Notes: generated by a model from the letters alone, not told the origin. A stretch of DNA of 39,016 bases from Gemmatimonadales bacterium (GCA_050053635.1 JASFTI010000003.1:1-39016), one strand, 5' to 3'. Counted from the stretch's first letter, positions 9,617-35,431 are shown. Made by a program: numbers and translations.

Positions 9617-9658
9617 GGTAGTGACGACCTCGCGAGCGGCCTCGGGATGAGGCCACGC

Positions 9659-10186: not shown

Positions 10187-10191
10187 GTTCT

Positions 10192-10623: not shown

Positions 10624-11000
10624 TCTAACTCCTCCTCGCGGTCGCAGGCGGTGAGCAGGGCCCGCACCAGATCGCTGATCTTCACCGGTTTCATCAGGTA
10701 ATCGTAGGCGCCCAGTGCCTTGCCCTTCTCGGCGTCCTCTTCGGAGCCCCAACCGGTCAGCAGGATTACCTGCAGCCCCGGTTGCTCCGCCTTGATCCTC
10801 CGGATGACCTCCAGCCCGCCTAAGCCCGGCATCTTCAAATCGAGCAGCACCACATCGAACGGCTTCTCCGCGATCGAAGAGAGCGCTTCGGCGCCAGTGG
10901 TCACGCCGCTGGCCTCGAACCCCCGCAGGTTCAGGCGCTCCTCCAGGGCGCTGACCAACTCTGCTTCGTCGTCCACGATCAGAACACGTAACGGTTCCAT
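10620..11000 (-). CDS. Single-domain response regulator
   Basis: VLIVDDE, LDLKMPGLGG, LLTG, YLMKP; 126 aa. Confidence 0.9.
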   Translation of the reverse strand: MEPLRVLIVDDEAELVSALEERLNLRGFEASGVTTGAEALSSIAEKPFDVVLLDLKMPGLGGLEVIRRIKAEQPGLQVILLTGWGSEEDAEKGKALGAYDYLMKPVKISDLVRALLTACDREEELE

Positions 11001-11009
11001 GTGCTGCTC

Positions 11010-12758
11010 CTAGGCGTGCGCCCGCCGTATCGGCAGTGTTACTGTGAAGCAGGTGCCTTCTCCCACCTGGCTCTCCACGCTGATTTGGCCACCCAGTTTC
11101 TGCACGATCCCGTACGTAATGGACAGACCCAGACCTGTCCCCGCACCCTTCTTCGTCGTGAAGAACGGATCGAAGATCTGCCCAAGCTGTTCCTCGGGGA
11201 TGCCAACGCCATCGTCCGCGATGGTAATCGCCACTGCGTCGTCCCCTACCCGTTCTATCCCTATCTCGATCCGCCCACCGTCCTCGACCGCGGCGAACGC
11301 GTTGTTGATGATGTTGAGGAACACCTGCTGCAACTGCCCTCTATCGCTGACGATGGGAGGCGGCGCTTCGGGGTACTTGAATTCGATCTCTATGTCTCGG
11401 TAGCTCGCTTCCTTACCCAAAAACTCCAGAACCTCTTTGAGCAGCACATCGAGGTCGATGGTCTCCCACTGTACCTCCATGTGCCTGGCGAAACCCAGAA
11501 GCCGGTGGGTGATCCCACCGCAGCGCTCAGCCGCATTGATCACCGCATTGACCAGATGGGCCAGCTTCTCCCGCGCCGGTAACTCCTCGGGCAGCGTGAT
11601 CAGGTCCTTCAGCAGCCCCGCATTTTGGGTGATGATCGAGAGCGGATTGTTGATCTCGTGAGCCACACCTGCACCGAGGCGCCCGATAGCGGCCATCTTG
11701 TTCGTGTACTCCATCTTGTGGTAGAGCGCCGCGCGCTTCGCGTCCGCCTCGCGAACACGTCTCACCACGTAGATCGAGCCCCAGACGACCACCGCCAGAA
11801 TCAGCGCGACACTGATCGCCGGGAATATCAACAGGTCGCGGCGCAGTGGTAGCCAACCCGCGTGCAGCGCTACCCGCGGACTCAACACCACCAGCGTGAA
11901 TGGCGAGCGATCGATCTGCGCGTAGCTGACGATCAGCGGCTCTCCCTGCTCGTCCACCAGATCGACAAGCTCCGCCTCGTTGCTGGGCGGCAGAGCGGGC
12001 AACGGTGTGCGCTCCAGCACGTTGCCGTAGAGCCGCGAAGCGCTTTGCAGGACACCCTCGCGGTTAACAATGAACGCGTCGCTGAATGGCTGGACCCCCA
12101 GCGAATGGCAGCGGCGACAAACCGGATCCAGTTCCGGACGTCGCGCCGTACGCGCGCGCACCAGCCAGTGGAACGCGTCGGTGTCGATCGTGGCGCGTAG
12201 GACGTAGCGGTTGCCTTCCGCGTCGACATGCTGGACCGCGACAATGATGTGGGGCAGGTTGCGGTATCCCAGGAACACGTCGCCCACGTAGGAGCCTCGG
12301 GCACTCACTTCTCGGAACCACGAATCGTCCGCGTAGCTGAGCGCTTGCGATTCCGCCGGACCGGCATAAGCAACCTGCGTGCCCTCATCGTCGATCAGGG
12401 CGAGCTCGATCACTCCACCAAAGGTCTGATTCAAGTTAGAGAGCACCGAGGCCAGTCTGCCCGCGTCGCGAAGCTCCTTTAGCGGTCTCTCCCGAGCCAC
12501 GACGGCCAGCGCCGACCGCCGCTCTGACAGGTAGGACTCGATCGACTGCTTCCCAGCCTCGGCGAAGCGCAGCATGGGACGAGTCAGTTCGGCACGGAAC
12601 GCCTCTTCGTACTGGTGGTAGGTGATGCCCGACATGATGAGAAGCGGAACCACGGCAACGGCGGACACCGAGAGCACCGCCACGAGGACCATCTTCCGAT
12701 AGCGCCGCCTCGAGATCAGCTGATCCTGATCCTCCTCCGATCTGCTTCCCCGGCTCAC
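11010..12758 (-). CDS. Membrane sensor histidine kinase with Cache-like periplasmic domain containing a CxxCH motif
   Basis: Two TM segments; H-box GVAHEINNPL, N-box QVFLNIINNA, G1 DDGVG, F-box FDPFFTTK, G2 GTGLGL. CRRCH at 12119-12105 lies between the TMs. Confidence 0.92.
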   Translation of the reverse strand: MSRGSRSEEDQDQLISRRRYRKMVLVAVLSVSAVAVVPLLIMSGITYHQYEEAFRAELTRPMLRFAEAGKQSIESYLSERRSALAVVARERPLKELRDAGRLASVLSNLNQTFGGVIELALIDDEGTQVAYAGPAESQALSYADDSWFREVSARGSYVGDVFLGYRNLPHIIVAVQHVDAEGNRYVLRATIDTDAFHWLVRARTARRPELDPVCRRCHSLGVQPFSDAFIVNREGVLQSASRLYGNVLERTPLPALPPSNEAELVDLVDEQGEPLIVSYAQIDRSPFTLVVLSPRVALHAGWLPLRRDLLIFPAISVALILAVVVWGSIYVVRRVREADAKRAALYHKMEYTNKMAAIGRLGAGVAHEINNPLSIITQNAGLLKDLITLPEELPAREKLAHLVNAVINAAERCGGITHRLLGFARHMEVQWETIDLDVLLKEVLEFLGKEASYRDIEIEFKYPEAPPPIVSDRGQLQQVFLNIINNAFAAVEDGGRIEIGIERVGDDAVAITIADDGVGIPEEQLGQIFDPFFTTKKGAGTGLGLSITYGIVQKLGGQISVESQVGEGTCFTVTLPIRRAHA

Positions 12759-12799
12759 TCTCTCCGCTCGCTCCGCGTTACACCGGCAACCGTCCGTGC

Positions 12800-13726
12800 C
12801 TACTCCATCTTCCGACGCGATCGACCCGCTTCCCTGACAACTTCCATGAGGCGGTTGATGTCGACCGGCTTGCTCAGGTACTCGAACGCTCCCAACCGGC
12901 GAGCCTCCGCCTCGTCAGCCTCCGACCCGTGGCCGGTCATGATTATCACTTCCATCTCGGGATACATCTTCTTCACCTGGCGCAACACCTCCAACCCGTC
13001 GATGCCCGGCATGCGGAGGTCGAGAACCATCACGTCCGGTACTTCGTCCTCGAGCATCTGTAGCGCCTGCTGTCCATCCAGCGCCACCTCGCTGTCGACC
13101 TCGCGCATCTCCATTCTCTCAGCCATGGTCCGCACGAAGTCCTCTTCATCGTCGACGAATAGGACCTTCAGCGTCTGAACGCCGGTGTCGGTTTCCTCGG
13201 CGCCAGGCTCGGCAGCGCTCTCGCTACCTCGGCGAGCTGACTCTTGCATGGCTTCCCTGGCGATTTCCGGTGCGCCCGCCTCGGCGAAGGCGGCCGCGGC
13301 CATGCTCCCCTCAAACTCCTCCTGCGAGTCCTTGATAAACTCGGCGGCGGCCTTCAAGCTCTTTCTCCAGGCGGCCCTCACCGTCTTCAGCAGGTGGCCC
13401 GTATCCGCCGGCTTCTGCAGGTACTCGAATGCACCCAGCCTACGGGCCTCATTTTCCTCTCTGTCCGAGCCGTGCCCGGTGAGGATGATCACCTCTATCT
13501 GGGGGTGCTGCTGCTTGACCCGTTCCAGCACCTCCATCCCATCGATGCCCGGCATGCGGAGGTCGAGAACCATCACGTCGGGTGGCTCGTCCTCGAGCAT
13601 CTGCAGCGCTTCCTCGCCGCTCAACGCCACGCGACTGCCGACATCGCGCATCTCCATGCGTTCGGCTAACGTCTTTACATAGGCTTCTTCGTCATCGACG
13701 AGGAGCACCTTGATCTTGCTCATCAC
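12800..13726 (-). CDS. Tandem REC-REC response regulator
   Basis: Two complete receiver domains (VDDEE, LDLRMPGIDG, TGHGS, KP) joined by a linker containing MAAAAFAEAG. Confidence 0.9.
   Translation of the reverse strand: MMSKIKVLLVDDEEAYVKTLAERMEMRDVGSRVALSGEEALQMLEDEPPDVMVLDLRMPGIDGMEVLERVKQQHPQIEVIILTGHGSDREENEARRLGAFEYLQKPADTGHLLKTVRAAWRKSLKAAAEFIKDSQEEFEGSMAAAAFAEAGAPEIAREAMQESARRGSESAAEPGAEETDTGVQTLKVLFVDDEEDFVRTMAERMEMREVDSEVALDGQQALQMLEDEVPDVMVLDLRMPGIDGLEVLRQVKKMYPEMEVIIMTGHGSEADEAEARRLGAFEYLSKPVDINRLMEVVREAGRSRRKME
12999..13579. repeat. Intragenic direct repeat between the two receiver domains
   Basis: Identical 38-mer tcgatgcccggcatgcggaggtcgagaaccatcacgtc at 12999-13036 and 13542-13579, within longer similar flanks. 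Confidence 0.85.
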
Positions 13727-13750
13727 AGCCTCCCTACTACCTCGCTTGCG

Positions 13751-14401
13751 TCACCCTGAAAGGGTCAGCCGGAAACCCGGCGTCGCTTCGCTCTGCTCGA
13801 GCGAAGCGCCAAGGACCTCGAGGACCGCCGCTAGCCCGCTCCAGCCCGCGGCCTCGGTCGGAACGAATCTTACCGCCTCACCCTCGACCTCACCGGCGAA
13901 CTCGAGCGCCGGTCGATCTCCGTGCCGAATCGGCTGCAGGGTCAACCTGCCCCCCTCGGGCAGTTGCTCCAGACAGCACTCGACGGCTGCGTGCAGAGCC
14001 ATCTGCAGGCGCAGCAAGTTGACCACTACCGTCAGGTTCTCCTCTCCGGGCTGCGCCTCTACGAGGTGCCTCCCCTTTCTGGCAACGCGCTGGCAAAGAA
14101 ACGAGACCTGACGAGCCACATCACTGAGGTCGGTCTCGTCCTCGGCATGATCCAAGCTGTGGGCGAATCGATTGAGGTTCGTGAGGAGCTCCGATCCGCG
14201 CTTGACCTGATCTTCGATGCGGCCGACCGCCCGCATTAGCTTGTCGGCTCTCGATGTCCCAGGCTTGTCGGATGATCTGACCAGGTCTGCGATCAGACCC
14301 GCAGACTCTTTGACGATTGCCAGAACGTTGCGGAGTTCATGGGTGGCGCCGGCGGTTATTTTGCCGATGAACGCCGCTTCTCGATCTTCGCTCGTGCTCA
14401 T
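13751..14401 (-). CDS. Histidine kinase-like protein with intact H-box and degenerate ATPase domain (possible phosphotransferase)
   Basis: GKITAGATHELRNVLA H-box; no recognisable N, G1 or G2 boxes; no sensor domain; 216 aa. Confidence 0.75.
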   Translation of the reverse strand: MSTSEDREAAFIGKITAGATHELRNVLAIVKESAGLIADLVRSSDKPGTSRADKLMRAVGRIEDQVKRGSELLTNLNRFAHSLDHAEDETDLSDVARQVSFLCQRVARKGRHLVEAQPGEENLTVVVNLLRLQMALHAAVECCLEQLPEGGRLTLQPIRHGDRPALEFAGEVEGEAVRFVPTEAAGWSGLAAVLEVLGASLEQSEATPGFRLTLSG

Positions 14402-14562: not shown

Positions 14563-14624
14563 TTGACACCGCCGGCCGCCTACCTTATCTGGCAGCAGGC
14601 CGAATCGTGCCGATTGTCACGATT
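14563..14624 (+). promoter_or_regulatory. Putative promoter with downstream Rex-like palindrome for the tauE operon
   Basis: TTGACA at 14563, then 17 bp, then TATCTG (weak -10). Palindrome AATCGTG-ccgattgt-CACGATT at 14603-14624. Confidence 0.5.
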
Positions 14625-14666
14625 TCGCGTGACGGCCCGAGTGGAGACCGGGTGAGGAGGGAGAAG

Positions 14667-15689
14667 GTGAGCGCCCAGGAACCGGACAGGATTCCGGGAA
14701 AGGACCACCGCCCCATGAGGGCACGGCTTCCTGCTTCGCTCACCCGCGTCGTCGCACTCCTCGGCCTCACCCTGCTCTTCGATCCGACCGTCGTCCAGGC
14801 GAGCGCGGTGACGGCGCCAGCGGTCGCTGACGGCGCGATGGCCTGGTGGGCGTGGCCTCTCATCCTCTTCCTGCTCACGTTCGTCATGGGGATCCTCGCG
14901 GCCCTGGGCGGTGTGGGAGGAGGGGTTTTGTTCGTACCCATCGTGAGCGGTTTCTTCCCCTTTCACATCGACTTCGTGCGTGGCTGCGGACTCCTAGTAG
15001 CACTGAGCGGCGCTCTGGCCGCCGGGCCCGGCTTTTTGAAGATGAACCTGGCCAGCCTGCGCCTGGCGATGCCGGTAGCTTTGATTGCCTCGAGCTGCGC
15101 GATCGTCGGGGCGATGATCGGCCTCGCTCTGCCGACGGATGTCATTCAGACGGCCCTGGGTGCGACCATCCTGGGGATCGTCGTCATCATGATGGCGGCG
15201 AAGAAGTCGGTGTTCCCGGACGTCGAGGAGGCGGACCGCGTCTCTTCGGCCCTGCGGATCTGCGGCGTCTACACCGAGGCCAGCATGGGCCAGGCGATCA
15301 ATTGGCAGGTGCACCGAACGGTGCCCGGCCTGCTGTTGTTCGTTGTCATAGGCGTAATGGCGGGGATGTTCGGGCTGGGCGCGGGCTGGGCCAATGTTCC
15401 CGTTCTGAACCTGGTGATGGGTGCGCCGCTCAAGGTCAGTGTGGCGACCAGCAAGTTTCTCCTATCGATCACGGACACCTCGGCGGCCTGGATCTACGTC
15501 AACCGCGGCGCGGTGATCCCAATGATGGTCGTTCCGTCGCTGGTCGGTATCATGCTGGGATCGTTTATCGGGGTACGTATCCTGCGGATCGCGAGGCCGG
15601 GATTCGTCCGTTGGATCGTGATCGCCTTGCTGCTCTTCGCCGGGGCCAAGGCCATTACCAAGGGACTGGGCCTTCCGTTTATCGTGTAG
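14667..15689 (+). CDS. TauE/SafE (TSUP) family sulfite/sulfur-compound transporter
   Basis: Two GxGGG-type repeats (LGGVGGGVLFVP, MFGLGAGWANVP) and VATSKF. Start uncertain: GTG 14667 has a strong GAGGAGG RBS; 14607 and 14715 are alternatives. Confidence 0.85.
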   Translation: MSAQEPDRIPGKDHRPMRARLPASLTRVVALLGLTLLFDPTVVQASAVTAPAVADGAMAWWAWPLILFLLTFVMGILAALGGVGGGVLFVPIVSGFFPFHIDFVRGCGLLVALSGALAAGPGFLKMNLASLRLAMPVALIASSCAIVGAMIGLALPTDVIQTALGATILGIVVIMMAAKKSVFPDVEEADRVSSALRICGVYTEASMGQAINWQVHRTVPGLLLFVVIGVMAGMFGLGAGWANVPVLNLVMGAPLKVSVATSKFLLSITDTSAAWIYVNRGAVIPMMVVPSLVGIMLGSFIGVRILRIARPGFVRWIVIALLLFAGAKAITKGLGLPFIV

Positions 15690-15710: not shown

Positions 15711-16157
15711 ATGAATGGCGAAATAGACTGCCCGAGTGCCGACGAGGAACAGCTGCTTTATGCCAAGATCCTCCAGACCGGCATGTACATCGGGTTGGCG
15801 ATCCTACTCGCGACCTTCGCCCTCTATAGTTCTGGCATCGTCGCGCCAGCCATACCCGTCGAACAACTTCCCGAGTACTGGGCGATGAACGTCCACGAGT
15901 ACCTGGAGGTAACGAACCAAAACCACCTGCACCACGAGCACCCGATATCCGGATGGTCCTGGCTATCGGTTCTTGAAAAGGGAGACTATCTTAATTTCCT
16001 CGGGATTGCCGTGCTTGCCGCAGTGACCATCTTCTGTTTCCTCGGAATCGTCCCCACGCTGATCAGGAAGAAGGACACACCCTATATGGTCATGGCGCTG
16101 CTGGAGGCCGCAATCTTGACACTGGCCGCGAGCGGCATCTTGAGTGTGGGGCATTGA
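15711..16157 (+). CDS. DUF1634-like small membrane protein (TSUP partner)
   Basis: Three TM segments and GDYLNFLGIAVLA; immediately follows the TSUP gene. Confidence 0.65.
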   Translation: MNGEIDCPSADEEQLLYAKILQTGMYIGLAILLATFALYSSGIVAPAIPVEQLPEYWAMNVHEYLEVTNQNHLHHEHPISGWSWLSVLEKGDYLNFLGIAVLAAVTIFCFLGIVPTLIRKKDTPYMVMALLEAAILTLAASGILSVGH

Positions 16158-16187: not shown

Positions 16188-16685
16188 ATGACTAGCGAGC
16201 CCTCGGACACGCTGCGCTTCCTTCCGGTAGGACTCGACGTCCGGGATAAGAGCTGCCTCGTCGTCGGCGGAGGTAGCGTTGGGACTCGCAAAGCCACCAC
16301 CCTGGCGCGTGCCGGCGCGGCCGTGACCGTCGTATCACCCGCGGTGACAGACGAGCTAGCCGAGCTGATCGGTGCCGGCCGCGTCCGCTGGGTGCAGGAC
16401 TCGTTCCGCGAGGAGCACCTGGGTAGCGCATTCCTCGCCGTTGCCGCCACCGATAGCGACGACCGCAACGCGGCGGTCGTCCGGGCAGCGCTCGCGACCG
16501 GCGCCCTGGCGTGCGATGCCTCAGCGGCGGAGCGATCCCAGCTGATCTTCGGTGCCCTGCTGGAAGATGACGACGTTACGATCGCTGTCTTCACTGGCGG
16601 CCGCGATCCAGCGTTGGCGCGGCAGGCACGCGACCGGATCGCCGATCTCATCGGCCGAGAACGGGGACCCAAAGACCGAGCATGA
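16188..16685 (+). CDS. Precorrin-2 dehydrogenase/SirC-Met8-like protein (CysG N-terminal type), short
   Basis: CLVVGGGSVGTRK NAD-binding motif, VTVVSP, AVAATD and IAVFTGGRDPALAR; 165 aa, lacking the C-terminal helical region. Confidence 0.8.
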   Translation: MTSEPSDTLRFLPVGLDVRDKSCLVVGGGSVGTRKATTLARAGAAVTVVSPAVTDELAELIGAGRVRWVQDSFREEHLGSAFLAVAATDSDDRNAAVVRAALATGALACDASAAERSQLIFGALLEDDDVTIAVFTGGRDPALARQARDRIADLIGRERGPKDRA

Positions 16686-18874
16686 GTTTGCAGACTGAGC
16701 CGTCTTCGCGCCGAGACCGCCCGTCGCCCGATTCGCGGCGCCGTGGTGTCGTGCTGGTCGGCTTGGGGGCACCCGATGGGCCCGACGTTGACTCGGTGCG
16801 CGAGTTCCTCGCGGAATGCTTCACCGACCCCTCGGTCAGCGGGTGGTCTCAGCGACTCAGGTGGCTGCAGAGGGCCCTCGGCCGCAACCGCGCCGGACGC
16901 CTGGCACCTCGGGCAGCCAACCTGTACCGCGAGCTCCGGGAGGTTCGCGGGACGTGGCCGGCCGCCGTCATGTCGGAGCAGGCGTCGGCCCTCGCCGCAG
17001 CGCTGCCCGACGGCTGGTCGGTCTACGTGGCCATGCGCTATGGCCGGCCCGCGATCGCCCAAGTCATGACTCAGGTCGAGGCGGACGGCATCGATGACCT
17101 GGTCGTCGTGCCGATGTATCCGCAGTTCAATCGTGCCACGTCCGGCACGATCCTGCGTGAGGTGCACCGCGTGCTCGGGCACACGGGGCAGCACATCAAT
17201 GTAGCCCTCCGTTCCACCTGGTACGACGACGTGGGGTACGTGAAAGCCCAGGCCCAGCTGCTCGCCGACTACGCGGGGTCACGAGGCCTGTGGCCGGATG
17301 ACACGCATCTGGCCTTCTGCGCTCACGGTCAGCCGGCCTCCAGGTCCTACAAGGGCGCCCTTTACGCGGGACAGGTGAGAAGGACCGTCAGGCTGGTCGC
17401 CGACCGCCTGGGCTGGCCGCCGGAACGGGCCTCGCTCGCCTTCCAGACCCACCCCGCCCCGGTTCGCTCACTCCGCCCCCATATCCGGGAGAGGCTGGCC
17501 GAGCTCGCCGCCGCCGGTGAGGAGAAGGTGCTGATCTGCCCGATCACCGCCGCGCTGGATGGCATGGAGACGATAGGGGAGGTCGATGTGGAGTGCCGGG
17601 AGTTGTTCGAGTCGGGCGGCGGTCAGCTCCATCTGTGCCCGGCGCTGAACGCGTACGACCCGTTTATCGCAGCCCTGAGGAATCTGGTGCTGCGCGGGCC
17701 ACGTCCGCTTACGGCCGATCGGCCGGCGCCCGTACCACTGCTGAGGCTCAAGCCCGAGTTGGAACTGTGCGACGGGGAACCCGAGTCGCTGATGATGATC
17801 GGCGTCTCGTTCGAGGGCGAAGTCGGCCCGGGTCGCGGCCCGCAGATCAGGTACAGCCATCCGCAGGCCTTTGGTAAGGTGAGAAAGACGCGCAAAGAGG
17901 TGCGTGAGTTCCTGAATGGGGTGCGGGAAGCGCCGGAAGTGAGCGAGTCGTTCGTCTGGAGTACCTGTCAGCGAATCGAGTTCTACGGATGGCTCGCCGA
18001 TCCCGGTGACCGCGCCGCACGGGAGCGTGCCGTCGAGCGGATACGCGCTCGCCTGTTCGGCGCCGAGCCTGAAGAACTCGAGGTGAACGCTCTGTTCGGC
18101 GTCGAGGCCTGGCACCATCTGATGCGCACCGCCTGCGGCCTGAATAGCGCGTTGCCAGGAGACACCGACGTGGTGGCGCAATTGCAGACGGCCTGCCGAA
18201 CCGCAGAGCGCGCCGGGACCGCGGGCCCTCGAGCGACCTGCCTGGTGAACAGCGCCATGGCGCTGTCGCGGGATGTGCGAGCCGAGACTGCATGGAGCGA
18301 CTTCAGCCACAGCTACTGTCTTGCCGCCCTGGCACGGCTCCACGAGGTGGACGGCGCCCACATGGACGAGTGTCACCACGTGGTCATCGGCGGCTCGGCT
18401 ACCTCGCGGTCGATCCTCTTCGCCCTCTCGCAGCACTTCGACGTCCCTCAGAGCCAGATGACGCTCGTCTACCGCGGGCACCACGGCCAGCTGAAGCTGC
18501 TGCGCGGCGCCATCGGCCACGGGAAACGCCTGCGTGTCCAATCGTACTCCCAGGCCAGCGTTATCCGCGCCATCGCCGATGCCGACTTCGTCTACTTCGG
18601 AGTCGACACCCAGACACCCATCCTCGATGCCGAAACCCTCAGCGGCCTAGGGGACCTCCTCCACCGCCCCCTCCGAGTCGTCGACTTCAACACACTGGGC
18701 TCCGTCGCCCGCACCGAGATCCCAGCCCCGCTCACCCTCTGGACCGCCGGGGATCTCGACCGCGCCGTGGCCGCTTTCGCCGAAACGCTGCGCTCCCGAC
18801 CCCACTTCGCAGGCGCCGTCGACCAGGCGGAGGAGTGGATCGAGAATCGCCTGCCCTCACTGGTCGGCTCGTGA
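16682..18874 (+). CDS. Fusion of ferrochelatase (HemH/CpfC-like, N-terminal) and glutamyl-tRNA reductase-like (HemA, C-terminal) domains
   Basis: HemH motifs: VVLVGLGAP, AMRYGRP, VPMYPQF, FCAHGQP, DGMETIGEVD, CPALN. HemA motifs: STCQRIEFY, HLMRTACGLNSALPGDTDVVAQ. Single uninterrupted 730-aa ORF. Confidence 0.85.
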   Translation: MSLQTEPSSRRDRPSPDSRRRGVVLVGLGAPDGPDVDSVREFLAECFTDPSVSGWSQRLRWLQRALGRNRAGRLAPRAANLYRELREVRGTWPAAVMSEQASALAAALPDGWSVYVAMRYGRPAIAQVMTQVEADGIDDLVVVPMYPQFNRATSGTILREVHRVLGHTGQHINVALRSTWYDDVGYVKAQAQLLADYAGSRGLWPDDTHLAFCAHGQPASRSYKGALYAGQVRRTVRLVADRLGWPPERASLAFQTHPAPVRSLRPHIRERLAELAAAGEEKVLICPITAALDGMETIGEVDVECRELFESGGGQLHLCPALNAYDPFIAALRNLVLRGPRPLTADRPAPVPLLRLKPELELCDGEPESLMMIGVSFEGEVGPGRGPQIRYSHPQAFGKVRKTRKEVREFLNGVREAPEVSESFVWSTCQRIEFYGWLADPGDRAARERAVERIRARLFGAEPEELEVNALFGVEAWHHLMRTACGLNSALPGDTDVVAQLQTACRTAERAGTAGPRATCLVNSAMALSRDVRAETAWSDFSHSYCLAALARLHEVDGAHMDECHHVVIGGSATSRSILFALSQHFDVPQSQMTLVYRGHHGQLKLLRGAIGHGKRLRVQSYSQASVIRAIADADFVYFGVDTQTPILDAETLSGLGDLLHRPLRVVDFNTLGSVARTEIPAPLTLWTAGDLDRAVAAFAETLRSRPHFAGAVDQAEEWIENRLPSLVGS

Positions 18875-19184: not shown

Positions 19185-19652
19185 ATGCCGAGTTACGTGA
19201 TTGGGGACAAATGTGACGGCTGCAAGGCGCTCGATAAGACCGCCTGCCAGCACATTTGCCCGAACGATCTCATGGTCCTGAACAAGGACACGATGAAGGC
19301 CTACAACCAGGATCCGCAGATGTGCTGGGAATGCTACAGCTGCGTGAAGATCTGCCCGACCCAGGCGATCGAGGTCCGCGGTTACCAGGACTTCATTCCG
19401 CTGGGCGCCAGCGTGACGGCGATGCGCAGCAGCGAGGACATCATGTGGACCCTGCAGTTCCGCAGTAAGGACATCAAGCCGAAGCGCTTCAAGTTCCCGA
19501 TCCGCCGGGGCGTGGACGAAGGCAAGGCGCAGCCGTTCGATCACTATCCGACCGGCGACGACGACCTGAAGAGCCCGACGCTGATGTGCGAGCCGGCCGG
19601 TCTCAACACCGAGAAGGGGCCGGTGAAGATCGACAAGACTCTGACGCTGTAG
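19185..19652 (+). CDS. aprB: Adenylylsulfate reductase subunit beta
   Basis: MPSYV..KCDGCK....TACQHICPNDLM, CWECYSCVKICP, IEVRGYQDF and RFKFPIR. Confidence 0.97.
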   Translation: MPSYVIGDKCDGCKALDKTACQHICPNDLMVLNKDTMKAYNQDPQMCWECYSCVKICPTQAIEVRGYQDFIPLGASVTAMRSSEDIMWTLQFRSKDIKPKRFKFPIRRGVDEGKAQPFDHYPTGDDDLKSPTLMCEPAGLNTEKGPVKIDKTLTL

Positions 19653-19705
19653 TCGGGTATGCTCGAGCTCTTCAGACGACGAACAGCAAAGGGAGAGATG
19701 CAAAA

Positions 19706-21598
19706 ATGCCGGAATTCGAGACCGTAACGGTTGACACCGATCTGCTGATCTGCGGCGGCGGGATGGCCGCTTGCGGCGCGGCGGTCGAAGCGTCCTACTG
19801 GGCGAAAAAGAACGGGTTGAAAGTCACTCTTGTCGACAAGGCGGCCATGGATCGCTCGGGCGCCGTCGCCATGGGCCTATCGGCCATCAACCAGTACGTG
19901 GACCTGAACAGCGGCAACAACACGCTAAAGGACTACGTCGACTACGTCCGCAACGATCTCATGGGCATCACGCGCGAGGATCTCGTGGCCAGCATCGCGC
20001 GCCACGTGGACTCGACGGTCCACCTGTTCGAGAAGTGGGGCCTGCCCATCTGGAAAGACAAGGAAGGCAACTACGTCCACGAGGGCCGCTGGCAGTTGAT
20101 GATCAACGGCGAGTCCTACAAGGTCATCGTTGCCGAAGCCGCGAAGAACGCTTTGGCAGAGGCCGACGGCGAGTACTTCGAGCGCGTGTTCATCACGCAT
20201 CCACTGGTCGACGGCGACAAGTGCGTGGGCGCCGTCGGATTCAGCGTTAGGGAAAACAAGCTGTACGTGTTCAAGGCGAAAGCCACGCTCGTTGCCATGG
20301 GCGGCGCGGTACACGTGTTCAAGCCGCGTTCGACCGGCGAAGGCTTTGGCCGCTCCTGGTATCCGCCCTTCAATTCCGGCGCCAGCGCCTTCTTTACCAT
20401 CTACGGCGGCGCCGAGATGACCTGCCAGGAGGTCCGCTTCATCCCCGTACGCTTCAAGGACGCTTACGGTCCCGTGGGCGCCTGGTTCCTGCTCTTCAAG
20501 TCGATCGCGACCAACGCCGAGGGCGGCAACTACATGCAGGAAAACGCCGCCGAGCTCGACAAGTGGGAGCCCTACGGCAAGGTGAAGCCGCGTCCCGCCA
20601 ACATCCGCAACTGGCTGATGATGCTGGACGTGATGGACGGCAAGAGCCCCATCTACATGCAGACCGCCGACGCGATCAAGAAGATCGCCGACGAGGCACC
20701 CGATGAGAAGGCGGCGAAGAAGAAGCTGAAGGAGCTCGAGGCCGAGGCTTGGGAGGACTTCCTCGACATGACGATCTCGCAGGCGATCCTCTGGGCCGCC
20801 ACCAACGTCGAGCCCGAAAAGAAGCCTTCCGAGATCATGGCCTGTGATCCGTATTTCATCGGGTCCCACTCCGGTGCCTCCGGCGCCTGGGTCTCCGGTC
20901 CGGAAGATCTCCAGACCCCCGATACCAAAGACGAGTACTTCTGGGGCTACCCGCACATGACCACGGTCAGCGGCATGTTCGCCGCCGGCGACGCCTCGGG
21001 AGCTTCGAGCCACAAGTTCTCCTCCGGCTCACACGCCGAGGGGCGGATCGCAGCCAAGGCGGCGATCTCCTACATCGTCGACAACAACGAGGCACCCAAG
21101 GTCGACCAGGCCAAGATCGACGCCCTCAGAGCCGAGATCCTCAAGCCCCTGGCCACCTTCGAGGAGCACAGTGGAACGACCACCGACCCGGACATCAACC
21201 CCAACTACATCCGTCCTAGGCAGTTCATGTACCGCCTGCAGAAGATCATGGACGAGTACGCGGGTGGCGTGTCCAGTCAGTTCAAGACCAGTGACAAACT
21301 GCTCGAGAAGGGTATGGAGCTGCTGACCTTCTTGAAGGAGGATGCGGACAAGATGGCGGCGTCCAACCTGCACGAGCTGATGCGCTGCTGGGAGAACATC
21401 CACCGCATGTACCAGGCGGATGCCCACATGCGCTCCATCTTGTACCGGGAGGAGACCCGCTGGCCGGGTTACTACTTCCGCGCAGACAAGCCGAGCATGG
21501 ACAACAAGAACTGGCTTGCCTTCTGCAACTGCAAGTACGATAGGGATACGGGCGAGTGGACGATGATGAAGAAGCCCGTCAAGTACATCACGAGCTAG
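19706..21598 (+). CDS. aprA: Adenylylsulfate reductase subunit alpha
   Basis: GGGMAACG, RSGAVAMGLSAIN, WQLMINGESYK, RFKDAYGPVGAW, HKFSSGSHAEG and ETRWPGYYFR. Start at ATG 19706. Confidence 0.97.
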   Translation: MPEFETVTVDTDLLICGGGMAACGAAVEASYWAKKNGLKVTLVDKAAMDRSGAVAMGLSAINQYVDLNSGNNTLKDYVDYVRNDLMGITREDLVASIARHVDSTVHLFEKWGLPIWKDKEGNYVHEGRWQLMINGESYKVIVAEAAKNALAEADGEYFERVFITHPLVDGDKCVGAVGFSVRENKLYVFKAKATLVAMGGAVHVFKPRSTGEGFGRSWYPPFNSGASAFFTIYGGAEMTCQEVRFIPVRFKDAYGPVGAWFLLFKSIATNAEGGNYMQENAAELDKWEPYGKVKPRPANIRNWLMMLDVMDGKSPIYMQTADAIKKIADEAPDEKAAKKKLKELEAEAWEDFLDMTISQAILWAATNVEPEKKPSEIMACDPYFIGSHSGASGAWVSGPEDLQTPDTKDEYFWGYPHMTTVSGMFAAGDASGASSHKFSSGSHAEGRIAAKAAISYIVDNNEAPKVDQAKIDALRAEILKPLATFEEHSGTTTDPDINPNYIRPRQFMYRLQKIMDEYAGGVSSQFKTSDKLLEKGMELLTFLKEDADKMAASNLHELMRCWENIHRMYQADAHMRSILYREETRWPGYYFRADKPSMDNKNWLAFCNCKYDRDTGEWTMMKKPVKYITS

Positions 21599-21612
21599 AG
21601 GTTCATGAGCCA

Positions 21613-21652
21613 CGGGATCTTCGGGCGTCCCTCACAACGCTCGAAGGTCCCG
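21613..21652 (+). terminator. Strong stem-loop after aprA (mRNA stabiliser or partial terminator)
   Basis: cgggatcttcgggcgt / acgctcgaaggtcccg form a 16-bp stem with two G-U pairs and an 8-nt loop; no U-tract. Confidence 0.55.
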
Positions 21653-21768
21653 ACGCTCCACACTCCCAGACTCGTCCTATGTCAAGCAGCGTTTCCTTAC
21701 GCCACACCGGCAAGGTGATCGACCGCTCTATGATCGCCGCAGTAATCTCTCAACGAGCGAGGAGCCCG

Positions 21769-22050
21769 ATGGCTGGAGCGCGCACCTGTCCACATTGCGG
21801 CGACCGTCTCAAGAAGTGGCTCGTACCGGACGGCGCCACATGGACCGAAAAGTTCCTCTTCGTCTGCTTCAACGACGAATGCTCGTACTATCGGGAGGGC
21901 TGGGAGTGGATGGAGCAGCAATACGGTCAACATGCATCGTACCGATACATGGTCAATCCCACCACTGGCGCCTCGTCGATGATTCCGGTCTGGTCGGACT
22001 CCGCGACGCGGGAGATGATCGTGGAGGATGACGAAGGAGAGAGCGAATGA
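21769..22050 (+). CDS. Small zinc-ribbon-like protein
   Basis: GAGGAG RBS before ATG 21769. CPHC...VCFNDEC four-Cys pattern; stop overlaps the next start (ATGA). Confidence 0.75.
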   Translation: MAGARTCPHCGDRLKKWLVPDGATWTEKFLFVCFNDECSYYREGWEWMEQQYGQHASYRYMVNPTTGASSMIPVWSDSATREMIVEDDEGESE

Positions 22051-22943
22051 CCGACGAGCAACGTTCCCCGGCGTCCGCCGACCCCCGTGGCCCCTTGCAG
22101 GAGAAAATCCTCACCGATCAGCCGAGGCTCGGCCCGGACGACACGTTCAGCTTCGCCTGCCATCCGGGTGTCTCCTGCTTCAATAAGTGTTGCAGTGACG
22201 TGAACATCTTCCTGTCACCCTACGACGTCCTGCGCATCAAGCGACGCCTCGGCATGACATCGAGCGACTTCCTCGAGGTGTACACGCTGCTCCCCGTCCA
22301 GAAGGACATGAGGACCCCCGTCGTCGTGCTGCGCATGACCGACGATGAACTCAAAACCTGTCCGTTCTTGACCGACGGCGGCTGCGGCATCTACTCCGAC
22401 CGGCCTTGGCCCTGCCGCATGTACCCCCTTGGCCTCGCGGCCCAGAAGGACACACCCAACGGTTGGCGAGGCGACCGCTTCTACTTCCTCCTTAAGGAGG
22501 AGGGCTGTCGTGGGTTCGACGAGTCGCACCGCTGGACGGTCCGCGAGTGGCTCGACGACCAGGGGATCGATCAGTACGACGAGTGGGGTGAAGCGTACAA
22601 GGAGCTGACGCTCCACAAGTTCTTCGAGGACGGCGGTGTCCTCTCCCCCCAGAAGATGGAGATGTTGTTCACCGCCTGCTACGACCTCGACAAGTTCCGC
22701 GAGTTCGTGTTCGAGAGCACGCTGCTGCAGCGGTTCGAGGTGGATGAGGAGTTCGTCGAAGAGATGCGCTACGACGACGAGGCGCTGCTACGATTCGCGT
22801 TTCTCTGGTTGCGCTTCAGCCTCTTCGGCGAGCCGACCGTAAAAGCCAGGGCCGAAGTCGTCGATGCGTTCAAGGGTAGCCTCGATAAGAGGAAGGTATT
22901 CGGCAGCGAACCGGCCACGGCCGGCGACGAGGATAGACCATGA
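22047..22943 (+). CDS. YkgJ/CxxCxxCC family cysteine-cluster protein
   Basis: FACHPGVSCFNKCC and CPFL...GCGIYSDRPWPCRMYP; translationally coupled to qmoA. Confidence 0.85.
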   Translation: MTDEQRSPASADPRGPLQEKILTDQPRLGPDDTFSFACHPGVSCFNKCCSDVNIFLSPYDVLRIKRRLGMTSSDFLEVYTLLPVQKDMRTPVVVLRMTDDELKTCPFLTDGGCGIYSDRPWPCRMYPLGLAAQKDTPNGWRGDRFYFLLKEEGCRGFDESHRWTVREWLDDQGIDQYDEWGEAYKELTLHKFFEDGGVLSPQKMEMLFTACYDLDKFREFVFESTLLQRFEVDEEFVEEMRYDDEALLRFAFLWLRFSLFGEPTVKARAEVVDAFKGSLDKRKVFGSEPATAGDEDRP

Positions 22944-24202
22944 GCGGAAACGGAAAGCGGGGTACGGTTCTGGTGATCGGTGGCGGGATAAGCGGCATCA
23001 CCGCCGCCATCGAAACGTCCGAAGCAGGCTGCGACGTGGTGCTGGTAGAAAAGAACCCCTATTTGGGCGGCCGCGTGGCTCAACTGAGCCAGTACTTTCC
23101 CAAGCTCTGCCCACCGACCTGCGGCCTGGAGATCAACTTCCGTCGCATCCGGACCAGCCCGCGCATACGTTGTCTGACGCTATCAGAGGTCGAGCGAGTC
23201 AGCGGCGGACCCGGCAACTACAGAGCCACGATCCAGCGCACACCACGCTATGTGAACGCCAAGTGCACGGCCTGCGGCGCCTGCGTCGAGGCCTGCCCCG
23301 TCGAGCGCCCCGACGACTTCAACTGCGGCATGAGCAAGACCAAAGCGATCTATCTGCCGTTCGAGATGGCTCACCCGCTGCAGTTCGCGATCGACGGCGC
23401 CGTCTGCCCGGGCAGCGAATGCGGGAAGTGCGTGCCGGCCTGCCCCTACCAAGCCATCGACCTCGAGATGAAGCCCGAGACGATCGAGCTGGATGTCCAG
23501 TCGGTAATCTGGGCGACGGGCTGGAACCCGTTCTCCGCCGAGACCATCGAGAACCTGGGGTTCGGCACGTATCCCAACGTGATAACGAATCTCATGATGG
23601 AACGGCTGGCCTCGGGCAACGGGCCCACGGGCGGGGTAATCCAGAGGCCGTCCGACGGAAAGGAGATCGACAGCATCGCGTTCGTACAGTGCGCCGGCTC
23701 GCGTGACGAGAACTACCTCAAGCACTGCTCCGGCGTCTGCTGCCTGGGATCTCTCAAGCAGGCACGCTACGTCCGCGAACAGTACCCCGAAGCACAGATC
23801 TACATCTTCTACATAGACATCCGCGCGCCGGGCCGGCTCGAGGACTTCTTCGCCGCGACCGAGAAGGACGAGAAGCTCAGCCTGATCAAAGGCAAGGTGG
23901 CGAAGATCAGCGAGGACGCCTCTGGATACCTGGAGGTCGAGGCGGAAGACACGCTCACCGCCGAACGGGTGAAACAGAAGGTCGACCTCGTCGTTCTGGC
24001 GACCGGAATGGTACCCGCCGGCGCTGGTGATGTGCAGATGAACGGCGGTCTGCGGACCGACGAGTTCGGGTTCCTGACCAGCGAGCAGGAGCACCCGGGG
24101 CTGCTGGCCGCCGGTTGTGCCAAGCGCCCCACGGACGTGGCCACATGTGTGCGAGACGCCACCGGCGCCGCCATGAAGGCCCTCAAAAGCTGCGGGGAGT
24201 AA
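22940..24202 (+). CDS. qmoA: QmoA (HdrA-like flavoprotein)
   Basis: GGGISG, YFPKLCPPTCGLEIN, ferredoxin motifs, FVQCAGSRD, CSGVCC and YIDIR. Confidence 0.93.
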   Translation: MSGNGKRGTVLVIGGGISGITAAIETSEAGCDVVLVEKNPYLGGRVAQLSQYFPKLCPPTCGLEINFRRIRTSPRIRCLTLSEVERVSGGPGNYRATIQRTPRYVNAKCTACGACVEACPVERPDDFNCGMSKTKAIYLPFEMAHPLQFAIDGAVCPGSECGKCVPACPYQAIDLEMKPETIELDVQSVIWATGWNPFSAETIENLGFGTYPNVITNLMMERLASGNGPTGGVIQRPSDGKEIDSIAFVQCAGSRDENYLKHCSGVCCLGSLKQARYVREQYPEAQIYIFYIDIRAPGRLEDFFAATEKDEKLSLIKGKVAKISEDASGYLEVEAEDTLTAERVKQKVDLVVLATGMVPAGAGDVQMNGGLRTDEFGFLTSEQEHPGLLAAGCAKRPTDVATCVRDATGAAMKALKSCGE

Positions 24203-24205
24203 AGG

Positions 24206-26455
24206 GTGGAGAAGAAAGTAGCCGTTTACATATGCCATGGCTGCGACATCGGCAGCTCGCTGAACGCGGAGGAGCTGTGCGAGCTCGCTACGGGAGACTG
24301 CGAGGCCGACCTATGTCGCGACCACGAGTTCCTCTGCGGCGAATCAGGTCTCGAGCTGATCAAGAGTGATATCGAGCAGGGCGCTAACGTGCTCGTCGTC
24401 GCCGCCTGCTCGCCTCGCTTCAAGACCGACGACTTCACCTTCGACGGATGTGTCACCGAGAGGGTGAACCTTCGCGAGCACGTGGTCTGGAGCCACGAAC
24501 CCAACGACGAAGACACGCAGATGCTCGCCGCCGATTACCTGCGCATAGGGATCGCTCGGGCGAAAAGAACAGAAATCCCGGAACCGTTCGACGAAGAGAT
24601 CGACAAGACGATGCTGGTCGTCGGTGGCGGCGTAACCGGGATGGCGGCGGCGCTCGATGCCGCAGGCGCAGGCCACGACGTCGTCCTGGTGGAAAAGGAG
24701 CAGCAACTGGGCGGTTGGGCGGGCAAGTTCGCCTGGCGTTTCCCCCTCAACCCTCCCTATCGGGACCTCGAACCGGTCGATCTCAGCGAGCGCATTGCCG
24801 AGGTCGAGGGCAACGAGCGGATCACCGTCCACACCGGCGCGACCGTCCAGAAGGTCGCCGGGCAACCGGGCCAGTTCGACGTCAGTATCAACGCCAACGG
24901 CTCGAGCTCCGAGTTCCGCGTCGGCGCCATCATCCAAGCCACGGGTTGGCAGCCGTACGACGCCTCGCGCCTCGGCCATCTGGGCTACGGCCGCTCTCCC
25001 AACGTGATCACCAACGTGCAGATGGAGGAGCTGATCGCCGCCGGCGCGATTGCGCGGCCCAGCGACGGTAAGCCGGCTCGCCGGATCGCCTTCATCCAGT
25101 GCGCCGGCTCGCGCGACGCCGATCACCTGCCCTACTGTTCCGCCGTCTGTTGTCGCGTGACGATCAAGCAAGCCCTGGTGGCTCGGAAATTCGACTCCGA
25201 GGCCGAGGCATACGTGCTCTACAAGGACATCCGCGCGCCGGGACAGTACGAGGAATTCTACCAGACGGCCCAGGACGATCCCGGCATCTTCTTCACCAAG
25301 GCCGAAGTGGTCGGCGTCGAGGAAGTCGCCGACGGGGACCTGCAGGTCGAGGCCGAAAACACCCTGTTGGGCGACCGGGTCCGCATCGAGGCCGACCTCG
25401 TGGTCCTGGCGACCGGCATGGTGCCGGCAGCGGCCGACGGCGAGGGGATCCGGAAGCTCACCGACGCCAAAGCGGTGATCCAGAAGGGAGAAGCGGGTGC
25501 GCAGCTGGAAGCCGCGAAGGTCACGGTCGAGGAGCTCAAGCACCTCGAAGGCACCGCCATTCTGAATCTCGACTATCGGCAAGGCCCGGACCTTCCGGTG
25601 CTCAAATACGAGTTCCCTGACTCGCACTTCATCTGCTTCCCCTACGAGACCCGGCGAACCGGTATCTACGCCGCCGGCTGCGTTCGGGCGCCCAACGATT
25701 CGCTCGTCTGCATGGAAGACGGCGCCGGCGCCGCGCTCAAGGCGATTCAGTCCGTCGAGCTCGCCAGCCGGGGTGAGGCCGTCCACCCCCGCTGGGGCGA
25801 CACCTCCTACCCCGACTTCTTCATGCAGCGCTGTACCCAGTGTAAACGCTGCACCGAAGAATGCCCCTTCGGAACACTCAACGAGGACGAGAAGGGCACG
25901 CCGCTGCTCAACACGACCCGCTGCCGCCGCTGCGGCATCTGTCTGGGCTGTTGCCCCGAGCGGATTATTTCCTTCAAGGACTACTCGGTGGAGATCGTCT
26001 CCTCGATGATCAAGTCAGTCGACATTCCCGACGAGTTCGAGGAGAAGCCTCGCCTGCTCGGTCTGCTGTGCGAGAACGACGCCTATCCCGCCCTCGACGT
26101 CGCCGGCCTCAAGCGCATCAAGCACAGCCCCTTCATCCGCTTCATCCCGGTCCGCTGCCTGGGATCGGTCAATACGGTCTGGGTCGCCGATGCACTGTCC
26201 CGCGGCTTCGACGGCATTCTGCTAATCGGATGCAAATCGGGTGACGACTACCAGTGTCACTTCATCCGCGGCAGCGAGCTGATGGAGACGCGAAGCGAGA
26301 ACATTCGCGAGAAGCTCAAACAGCTCGCCTTAGAAGAGGAACGCGTCCGTGTAGAACAGCTGCCGATTTCTGACTTCGAGAGGCTGCCGGAGATCATCAA
26401 CGAGTTCGCCGAGCAGATCGATGAGATTGGGTTGAACCCGTTCAAGGGGTTCTAG
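24206..26455 (+). CDS. qmoB: QmoB (HdrA-like with C-terminal MvhD domain)
   Basis: YICHGC, AACSPR, ERVNLRE, QCAGSRD, SHFICFPYETRRTG, CTQCKRCTEECP, CENDAYPA, RCLG, GCKSGDDYQCHF and NPFKGF. Confidence 0.95.
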   Translation: MEKKVAVYICHGCDIGSSLNAEELCELATGDCEADLCRDHEFLCGESGLELIKSDIEQGANVLVVAACSPRFKTDDFTFDGCVTERVNLREHVVWSHEPNDEDTQMLAADYLRIGIARAKRTEIPEPFDEEIDKTMLVVGGGVTGMAAALDAAGAGHDVVLVEKEQQLGGWAGKFAWRFPLNPPYRDLEPVDLSERIAEVEGNERITVHTGATVQKVAGQPGQFDVSINANGSSSEFRVGAIIQATGWQPYDASRLGHLGYGRSPNVITNVQMEELIAAGAIARPSDGKPARRIAFIQCAGSRDADHLPYCSAVCCRVTIKQALVARKFDSEAEAYVLYKDIRAPGQYEEFYQTAQDDPGIFFTKAEVVGVEEVADGDLQVEAENTLLGDRVRIEADLVVLATGMVPAAADGEGIRKLTDAKAVIQKGEAGAQLEAAKVTVEELKHLEGTAILNLDYRQGPDLPVLKYEFPDSHFICFPYETRRTGIYAAGCVRAPNDSLVCMEDGAGAALKAIQSVELASRGEAVHPRWGDTSYPDFFMQRCTQCKRCTEECPFGTLNEDEKGTPLLNTTRCRRCGICLGCCPERIISFKDYSVEIVSSMIKSVDIPDEFEEKPRLLGLLCENDAYPALDVAGLKRIKHSPFIRFIPVRCLGSVNTVWVADALSRGFDGILLIGCKSGDDYQCHFIRGSELMETRSENIREKLKQLALEEERVRVEQLPISDFERLPEIINEFAEQIDEIGLNPFKGF

Positions 26456-26469
26456 GGAGTGTCGCGAGG

Positions 26470-33384: not shown

Positions 33385-33387
33385 CCG

Positions 33388-34191: not shown

Positions 34192-34221
34192 AGCCGTGCC
34201 GCAGGAAGGCGGGAGACTGTA

Positions 34222-35382: not shown

Positions 35383-35431
35383 CCAGAAGGGCAGTGGAAG
35401 CGTCATCATGCCCGTCCGAAAGGAGTTGAAG

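Follow-up and report, generated by a model that had tools for sequence, protein, structure and literature searches.

Why does a gene that joins a ferrochelatase (HemH) to a glutamyl-tRNA reductase-like protein (GluTR, HemA) stand at the head of a cluster of sulfur genes? The question is raised by an open reading frame (ORF) at 16682-18874 (+) in a 39,016-nucleotide (nt) stretch of Gemmatimonadales DNA (GCA_050053635.1, JASFTI010000003.1:1-39016); the window refers here to that whole stretch. The ORF encodes a fusion of 730 amino acids (aa) with an N-terminal HemH half and a C-terminal GluTR-like half, termed HemA'. A first-pass annotation, made from the sequence alone, had described the fusion and its place at the head of an apr/qmo/dsr cluster. 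This description holds: the frame is open, both Pfam domains are present, and apr, qmo, sat and dsr genes flank it. We give a probability of about 60% to the reading that the gene represents a family in which a ferrochelatase is joined to a shortened, working GluTR, and that it would here supply cofactors for the adjoining dsr genes.

The fusion gene and its family

The fusion ORF is a genuine gene of a conserved family under purifying selection and is not an assembly artefact. Its parts are as follows.

16682-18874, plus strand: whole fusion ORF (P0001), an open frame of 730 aa with homologues aligned from residue 1
16742-17692, plus strand: ferrochelatase (HemH) domain, residues 21-337 (Pfam PF00762, 210.8 bits against a cut-off of 27)
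17693-17875, plus strand: residues 338-398, the proline-rich linker plus the N-terminal strand of HemA', from the sequence
17876-18289, plus strand: GluTR N-terminal catalytic domain, residues 399-536 (GlutR_N PF05201, 75.7 bits against a cut-off of 27)
18290-18871, plus strand: Rossmann-type domain with a short two-helix tail, by Foldseek to GluTR structures

The frame has zero internal stops. Homologues of 730 aa with 75-78% identity span 100% of the fusion, and the same frame occurs in close relatives from other assemblies. The protein-database gene call for the window has 634 aa and begins at Met97 (16970-18874), which would remove the first 96 residues including the beginning of the ferrochelatase domain. 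Since the 730-aa homologues align from residue 1, the ATG at 16682 is favoured over Met97. This ATG overlaps the stop codon of the upstream SirC-like gene (ATGA).

The first-pass annotation had named a stop or frameshift between the domains, and a fusion unique to this assembly with a ratio of nonsynonymous to synonymous substitution (dN/dS) near 1, as signs against a real fusion. The DNA contigs over the junction have no stop or frameshift. One contig of run X1 (17123-17978), which is possibly the source of this DNA itself, bridges the linker with 0 differences. Contigs of run X2 over 17298-17640 and 17722-18506 show one substitution and no indels. All four sequence runs were compared as contigs, and uncovered stretches in X2 and in the RNA runs carry no meaning. 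In the window clade the two halves have dN/dS values of 0.18-0.31 (HemH) and 0.15-0.24 (HemA').

The AlphaFold2 model of the fusion, built with 116 family sequences, has a mean predicted local distance difference test (pLDDT) score of 91.1 and a predicted template modelling score of 0.63; the latter means that the relative placement of the two halves is not fixed. The HemH domain is mostly above 90 in pLDDT. The linker proper, which the first-pass annotation had rightly called Pro-rich, covers residues 339-365 and falls below 50 at 357-362. The source is a fragmented metagenome-assembled genome (MAG; 458 contigs, 87.8% complete, contamination 1.43%), and this and the shorter database call might suggest an assembly or frameshift error that merged two genes, or a gene in decay. 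The probability of such an artefact is negligible, as the 730-aa frame is found in several other assemblies, the DNA contigs have no indel or stop, dN/dS is well below 1 and both halves are confidently modelled.

The family is broad. A word-indexed search matched 92 clusters, 90 of which carry both PF05201 and PF00762 (37-83% identity, one being the window product). They are named 'ferrochelatase' at the source or, at JGI, 'protoheme ferro-lyase/glutamyl-tRNA reductase', and come from Gemmatimonadota and Planctomycetota/Phycisphaerae MAGs. An exhaustive HMMER search gave 128 representatives at E up to 1e-30, including fused forms and apparent stand-alone C-terminal modules. The 65 family loci in other assemblies, of which 36 belong to the Gemmatimonadota clade and 29 to the Phycisphaerae clade, come from a pattern scan of species-representative genomes, with the pattern taken from a 16-sequence alignment.

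The GluTR-like half

Judged by alignment, HemA' keeps the residues of GluTR thioester chemistry, namely the Cys nucleophile, the carboxylate-holding Arg, and the His, Ser and Gln. The catalytic domain contains the motifs W-S-T-C429-Q-R-I-E-F-Y (Cys429 codon at nt 17966-17968) and GLNSALPGD. Cys429 of STCQR aligns with position 48 of 1gpj (Ser in that chain) and with the Cys of STCNR in Arabidopsis GluTR; together with Arg431, His479, Ser489 and Gln500 it aligns with active-site residues of 1gpj and 4n7r. The kept Cys, His, Ser and Gln, and the change of GE to GD, had all been read correctly from the sequence at the outset. Foldseek matches the C-terminal half to Arabidopsis GluTR with NADPH (5yjl, 366 columns, E 4.7e-16) and to Methanopyrus GluTR (1gpj, 365 columns, E about 5e-16).

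The same residues are the fixed points of the family. The columns that never vary across 116 sequences all lie in the C-terminal half: T428, C429, R431, H479, G486, S489, Q500, G570, S572, T574, Y622, D668, F669 and N670. The HemH half has L108 as its sole invariant column in a 46-sequence alignment. TC-x-R-x-E is present in all 119 family rows, and W-x-T-C-x-R-x-E-x-Y, GLNSxLPGD, GGSxTS and DFNxxGS mark the family as signatures. In these alignments HemA' is the conserved core of the family, and the HemH half appears dispensable in relatives. A non-catalytic HemA domain, once proposed for this protein, does not agree with HemA' being the invariant part.

Several findings weigh against a GluTR function. 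The TIGR01035 hemA model gives 79.5 bits against a cut-off of 209.55, and the scores of other hemA equivalog models are far under their cut-offs. The tail of HemA' is truncated, because the TIGR01035 match, which spans model positions 18-275 of 416, ends at 275; Pfam finds no match to the dimerisation domain PF00745 in the fusion, in line with the truncated dimerisation tail of the first-pass annotation, and none to PF01488 at E up to 1. After the Rossmann domain the AlphaFold2 model shows only two short helices. To our knowledge, all solved GluTRs carry the dimerisation domain, and all characterised GluTRs are dimers built on that C-terminal domain. The pocket has three changes relative to GluTR (Asn to Gln, Glu to Asp in GE to GD, and Glu/Gln to Asp), and the Asn position of STCNR is Gln or His family-wide. 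IGGSATS (residues 569-575, nt 18386-18406) replaces GAGEMG of GluTR. This replacement in the NADPH motif had been noted and called degenerate; the replacement stands, and the word does not, given that G570, S572 and T574 do not vary among the 116 sequences. Further Rossmann-domain motifs are YR at 597-598 and DFNTLGS at 668-674. With GGSxTS in place of GxGxxG and three altered pocket residues, HemA' may act on a different substrate or with a different cofactor.

The evidence for a working GluTR is genomic. In the Phycisphaerae the fusion gene lies in a heme operon. At 27 loci the genes 3' of the fusion are hemN (22, TIGR00538 over cut-off), hemE (19), protoporphyrinogen oxidase hemY (19) and hemB (15), with hemL (10), hemC (8) and hemD (8) on the opposite strand; these counts are limited by contig ends. 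The steps without a separate gene in this cluster are exactly hemA and hemH. GlutR_N matches are confined to fusion genes in four of five complete Phycisphaerales chromosomes (one with two paralogues), and the fifth has the fusion and a canonical hemA. The fusion is also the sole ferrochelatase match in two of the five. In a sample of 121 genomes of the class, 6 have a fusion-type match, which is the sole GlutR_N match in 4 of them; a single canonical hemA is present in most of the rest and none in 23. HemA' is also the sole GlutR_N match in 7 of 14 Gemmatimonadota-clade genomes checked, including a record titled chromosome (where HemA' is stand-alone) and a 96%-complete genome in 10 contigs; these sole-homologue calls come from six-frame hidden Markov model searches of genomes that are mostly MAGs, which tempers them. 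HemA' is most likely a working GluTR, because it is the sole GluTR homologue in genomes with clustered heme genes.

The differences listed above could also mean that HemA' is a neofunctionalised reductase that acts on another activated carboxylate or with another cofactor, while 5-aminolevulinate (ALA) comes from another route. The very long branch between HemA' and canonical HemA (2.75 + 2.75 changes per column) would fit this, as would the missed equivalog cut-off, the altered pocket, the invariant GGSxTS in place of GxGxxG and the missing dimerisation domain. We consider it improbable. HemA' is the sole GlutR_N homologue in genomes that keep hemL, hemB, hemC, hemD and hemE in the same cluster, and no ALA synthase over cut-off is found in any of the four complete Phycisphaerales genomes examined. 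The pocket changes are conservative, with Arg431, His479, Ser489 and Gln500 kept without exception.

Some observations from the same genomes stand apart from this argument. One DsrA-positive Gemmatimonadota-clade genome (G059, 96% complete, 10 contigs) has no canonical hemA or hemH match, only a fusion with a His-less ferrochelatase-like half. For the siroheme-dependent (Ahb) heme route, TIGR04545, which we take to be AhbD, is over its 500-bit cut-off in none of 8 genomes including G059; in G049 and G306 the model is matched over its full length at 300-306 bits, and G059 has partial radical-SAM matches only. Two genomes of the Phycisphaerae class have a single GlutR_N match of intermediate score (G477:C4:502957-503283 and G514:C5:74037-74363; 96.6 and 83.3 bits) in open frames of only 382-388 aa; these are candidates for short GluTRs that stand alone. 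Immediately 5' of the fusion, 19 of 27 Phycisphaerae loci have a conserved ORF of about 175-195 aa (e.g. L028:9304-9837). It has membrane-like hydrophobic stretches, ends in R-A-P-P-(A/V) and has no Pfam or NCBIfam match.

The ferrochelatase half

The HemH half passes the hemH model TIGR00109 (170 bits, cut-off 124.6) and is nearest to protoporphyrin ferrochelatases. Alignment to human ferrochelatase (2pnj) pairs His215 of AHG (codon nt 17324-17326) with the His of SAHSLP and Glu296 of ET (codon nt 17567-17569) with the Glu of HIETL; the two catalytic residues are kept, as the first-pass annotation had stated. MRY at 118-120 aligns with FRY and gives the pair Arg119/Tyr120. The human counterparts are presumably His263, Glu343 and Arg164/Tyr165. 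The best Foldseek matches are to human ferrochelatase (3aqi/4f4d, E 2e-19, TM(target) 0.75-0.77), and the human and yeast enzymes together give E 2e-19 to 3e-17 and TM(target) 0.72-0.78 over the two-lobe fold of class II chelatases. With its catalytic residues kept, the HemH half probably still makes protoheme. Its motifs depart from the Phycisphaerae consensus (FCAHGQP for FSAHGLP, DGMETIGE for DCLETLEE), which counts against this activity. Two canonical GlutR_N genes (contigs C456 and C121, 172.7 and 160.6 bits) and one canonical hemH (263 bits) are present in the same genome; the fusion here is therefore an extra copy.

Across the family the ferrochelatase His is kept in 72 of 119 members and the Glu in 75 of 119. 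The counts by clade, made by reading the alignment block by eye, fall into a series. Phycisphaerae rows carry FSAHGLP and DCLETLEE, with the His in 28 of the 28 that have the region and the Glu in 28 of 29 (Asp in the other). The window subclade carries FCAHGQP and DG(M/V/F)ETLGE, with the His in 7 of 7 and the Glu in 6 of 7. Other Gemmatimonadota forms with a HemH domain have lost most of residues 30-95, and keep the His in 4 of 20 and the Glu in 3 of 20. The domain is wholly absent in several Gemmatimonadota relatives (L064, L074, L083/G128). In two Gemmatimonadota MAGs (L078:8235-10010 and L082:1536-3443) a SirC-like domain and HemA' share one stop-free frame with a low-complexity linker and no ferrochelatase domain. 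The ratio of dN in HemH to dN in HemA' rises from about 0.8-1.1 in Phycisphaerae to 1.0-1.4 in the window subclade and 1.6-5.9 in the short forms; only this ratio is used outside the window clade, where dS is mostly above 1 or undefined.

In a maximum-likelihood tree of HemA', with four canonical HemA sequences as the root, the Gemmatimonadota-clade rows form one group inside a Phycisphaerae grade, with a support of 100 in the Shimodaira-Hasegawa-like approximate likelihood ratio test. The tree comes from a quick search with this support measure only, and leaves out L044, L066, L080 and L085 as too short. It suggests that the gene was transferred once from Phycisphaerae-like donors and that HemH decayed afterwards. 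The direction of transfer is a lead only, since the root branch is very long.

The ferrochelatase-fold half may instead be mainly a porphyrin- or heme-binding domain, with a regulatory or scaffolding role, that gates the attached GluTR as a built-in control by the end product, and not a ferrochelatase that is needed; this overlaps in part with the reading that we favour. In many Gemmatimonadota relatives the catalytic residues are gone but about 200-240 residues with the ferrochelatase fold remain, the window genome already has a canonical hemH, and GluTR is regulated by heme in other organisms. We regard this as unlikely, though it is the alternative that we take most seriously. The HemH-like half of the short forms evolves 1.6-5.9 times faster in dN than HemA', and the domain is absent in L064, L074 and L083 and replaced by SirC in L078 and L082. 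Since this half is fast-evolving and lost in several relatives, it has the look of decay rather than of a conserved new role. In the window subclade the His and Glu are nearly always kept and the dN is close to that of HemA', which also argues against this reading.

A second possibility, also raised by the first-pass annotation, is that the HemH-fold half is a repurposed sirohydrochlorin ferrochelatase that completes siroheme with the SirC-like protein. The gene adjoins, and is translationally coupled to, a SirC-like gene without the C-terminal domain, and ferrochelatase and SirB/CbiX/CbiK are all class II chelatases. The evidence makes this very unlikely. The half passes the hemH equivalog cut-off and is nearest to protoporphyrin ferrochelatases; its CbiX score (PF01903) is 15.3 bits, under the cut-off of 22, and nickelochelatase models match the fusion at E of about 0.007, far under their cut-offs. 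The genome has a separate small CbiX (79.8 bits) adjacent to cobA on contig C37. In relatives that share the sirC/dsr context, either the catalytic residues or the domain as a whole are gone, and in Phycisphaerae the domain lies in a protoporphyrin-pathway operon and is the only ferrochelatase in two of the five complete genomes.

The link to sulfur genes

In the Gemmatimonadota the module is linked tightly to dsr/apr loci. Of 401 genomes sampled from the phylum, 8 have DsrA and 5 carry the module, all 5 with DsrA. The module is found in 0 of the 393 DsrA-negative genomes, where four weaker matches are plain hemH. A dsr, apr, qmo or sat gene lies in the fetched flanks of 26 of 36 Gemmatimonadota-clade loci. 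A SirC-like gene is likewise present in 26 of 36, directly upstream in 25. For the 10 clade loci without a sulfur gene, DsrA is found elsewhere in 6 genomes. Seven other DsrA-positive genomes each have a single SirC gene, on a contig shared with dsrA or, in G128, with the HemA' gene. In the DsrA-positive genome G012, SirC is preceded by a canonical hemA.

The genes directly upstream of the fusion form a conserved block with it, in the order TauE, 148-aa membrane protein, SirC-like gene, fusion.

14607-15689, plus strand: TauE/SafE-family anion (sulfite) exporter (Pfam TauE, 120.2 bits), present in 18 of 36 Gemmatimonadota-clade loci
15711-16157, plus strand: membrane protein of 148 aa that neither Pfam nor NCBIfam matches, co-conserved with TauE and itself present in 19 of 36 Gemmatimonadota-clade loci
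16188-16685, plus strand: SirC-like gene of the precorrin-2 dehydrogenase type, 165 aa (TIGR01470 and PF13241)

The SirC-like protein matches NAD_binding_7 (PF13241) at 86.8 bits against a cut-off of 22.1 and is the only strong match of the genome to this family. It matches TIGR01470 (cysG_Nterm) at 102.7 bits against 62.3. It lacks the C-terminal helical domain, because only model positions 1-146 of 205 are covered. A complex prediction for the SirC-like protein (165 aa) and HemA' residues 365-730 scored 0.00 against a mark of 0.32, which is uninformative either way.

Taken together, these genes suggest how cofactors could be supplied. HemA' would make glutamate-1-semialdehyde for ALA and would raise tetrapyrrole flux at the dsr locus. 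The SirC-like protein, translationally coupled to the fusion, would divert precorrin-2 to sirohydrochlorin, and with CobA and the small CbiX, whose genes lie elsewhere, the pathway to the siroheme of DsrAB would be complete. The ferrochelatase half, as a still-intact passenger, may supply protoheme for DsrM, DsrJ and QmoC. The dsr island would thus carry both the step into the pathway (GluTR) and the step that branches off to siroheme (SirC), so that cofactor supply could follow the sulfur enzymes.

A number of observations do not favour this role. The module is absent in 3 of the 8 DsrA-positive genomes of the phylum sample, and DsrA goes unmatched in 4 of a further 10 genomes of the Gemmatimonadota clade, including a record titled chromosome. 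A gap of 310 nt separates the fusion stop from aprB. Three short mismatch-free contigs from RNA libraries lie at 16188-16283 (start of the SirC-like gene), 16262-16478 (inside it) and 18333-18474 (inside HemA'); RNA libraries can contain DNA, and as signs of transcription these contigs are weak at best. We infer both the co-expression of the fusion with the apr and dsr genes and its two enzyme activities. DsrA is missing in 4 of the 5 complete Phycisphaerales carriers. The dsr link breaks down in a small subclade of the Gemmatimonadota as well as in the Phycisphaerae.

The dsr link is a lineage-specific deployment and not the defining role of the family, because these four carriers are without DsrA and the gene lies there in a heme operon. 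The first-pass annotation had proposed a dedicated cofactor supply, and had named a common occurrence in genomes without dsr genes as a point against it. The Gemmatimonadota linkage to dsr/apr and to the SirC-like gene fits the proposal, and the phylum sample shows no such occurrence; the heme operon of the Phycisphaerae does not fit it, and 4 of their 5 complete carriers are of that kind.

Some loci give further hints about the history of the sulfur genes. In the complete Phycisphaerales genome G404 (the genome of L065) two paralogues of the fusion are separated by about 8 kb, and between them lies an AprB-like stretch of 56 aa (L065:5851-6018, 89% identity). The DsrA of this genome, elsewhere on the chromosome, is 85% identical to that of the window, so dsr genes may also have moved between the phyla of the Phycisphaerae and the Gemmatimonadota. 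The AprB-like stretch and the DsrA together hint at sulfur-gene exchange between the two phyla. In L077, L080 and L085, dsrA, dsrB or dsrP is split over two or three frames, as by assembly indels or in decaying loci, and the HemH/HemA' gene of L080 and L085 is likewise split.

Other genes of the window

The remaining genes of the window are as follows.

8057-14401, minus strand: sulfate symporter (Na_sulph_symp), CBS protein, pair of response regulators, Cache-type histidine kinase and an ORF of 216 aa that belongs to no family
19185-19652, plus strand: aprB (Pfam), which with aprA opens the series of sulfur genes downstream of the fusion
19586-21598, plus strand: ORF of aprA (Pfam, first match from ORF residue 52)
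21556-22050 and 22047-22943, plus strand: two Cys-rich ORFs between aprA and qmoA (Ogr/Delta-like zinc finger; CxxCxxCC family)
22940-27660: qmoABC (Pfam)
from 27760: sat (Pfam)
from 29007: OsmC-like gene
from 29449: dsrC (Pfam)
from 29759: RsbRD_N protein
30358-35382: dsrM, dsrK, dsrO and dsrP (Pfam), the cluster also written dsrMK(J)OP
35408-37713: dsrAB (Pfam)
38105-39016, plus strand: DsrL-like ORF, open at the 3' end (NF009410, 344.9 bits, under its cut-off)

The block at 8057-14401 is divergent from TauE and syntenic with the island in the relatives L015-L017; it may be the regulator of the locus. The pair of Cys-rich ORFs is kept in L015 and L016 at 71-89% identity. One RNA contig has a 123-nt skip within aprB. 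The DsrL-like ORF resembles NAD(P)-binding models of the glutamate-synthase-small-subunit-like type. Together with the RsbRD_N protein after dsrC, it bears on whether the pathway runs in the reductive or the oxidative direction.

Significance

The bare fusion is not a discovery, because the architecture is visible in automatic annotation. What is new is that the family is read as a separate class of shortened GluTR and as the sole GluTR of some genomes, together with the linkage to dsr and sirC and the series of HemH decay. Searches of the literature found nothing relevant on a ferrochelatase/GluTR fusion, and two dsr surveys do not mention ferrochelatase, hemA or precorrin in their main texts (supplements excluded); this agrees with the first-pass annotation, which knew of no characterised fusion of the two.

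GluTR is the rate-limiting and heavily regulated entry step of tetrapyrrole synthesis. The family would show that the catalytic and Rossmann domains can work without the dimerisation domain and with a different nucleotide loop, and would provide a natural fusion of the first and last heme enzymes. Sulfur-respiring Gemmatimonadota would carry, within the dsr locus, genes of their own for entry into the tetrapyrrole pathway and for the siroheme branch. The graded series of N-terminal domains (intact, eroded, deleted, SirC-replaced) would be a natural experiment on domain loss after gene transfer. NCBI records label these fusion proteins only 'ferrochelatase', so genomes in which the fusion is the sole GluTR would be scored as without hemA in pathway reconstructions.

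A bolder idea is a new structural class of GluTR without the V-shaped dimer, in which the ferrochelatase-fold domain, active or dead, would be a built-in heme or porphyrin sensor. In the Gemmatimonadota such a device would have been captured by the mobile dsr/apr island and paired or fused with SirC, and would be a dedicated regulator of siroheme flux towards dissimilatory sulfite reductase. We regard it as doubtful. If true, the last enzyme of the pathway would throttle the first directly.

Comparison with known systems

The HemH-HemQ (CpfC-ChdC) protein of Cutibacterium acnes is likewise a natural join of a ferrochelatase with another heme-pathway enzyme, and HemH-HemQ is the only ferrochelatase fusion named in the passages on fusions of a 2026 heme review (PMC13564367). 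The Cutibacterium acnes fusion joins consecutive coproporphyrin steps, whereas the last and the first committed steps, which have no common intermediate, are joined here.

Human and yeast ferrochelatases (HemH/PpfC; FECH 1HRK/2HRE, yeast 1LBQ) share the full-length fold with the HemH half at TM(target) 0.75-0.78. Human FECH also shares the catalytic His/Glu pair and the Arg-Tyr pair, and the HemH half passes TIGR00109. The fusion lacks the [2Fe-2S] C-terminal extension of human FECH and has the GluTR module there instead. Leu is opposite Met76 and Gly opposite His341, by what we take to be the human numbering. Identity to known protoporphyrin ferrochelatases is only about 23%.

The upstream gene passes the siroheme synthase N-terminal model, as expected of CysG/Met8p/SirC enzymes. 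It differs from them in having only 165 aa and no C-terminal helical domain, and in being fused to HemA' in two MAGs; we know of no described SirC-GluTR fusion, and no search was made for one. A sirC-hemA neighbourhood is known from anaerobes, and SirC beside a GluTR gene recurs here, and with a canonical hemA in G012.

Canonical GluTR (1GPJ from Methanopyrus kandleri, 4N7R/5YJL from Arabidopsis) shares with HemA' the T-C-x-R-x-E catalytic domain, the His, Ser and Gln, and the Rossmann domain that follows, in a structural alignment of about 365 columns. The genomes suggest the same role for HemA', that of the GluTR of the C5 pathway. HemA' differs in having no spinal helix or dimerisation domain, in GGSxTS for GxGxxG and GLNSxLPGD for GLDSxxxGE, and in being usually joined to a ferrochelatase domain, or to SirC.

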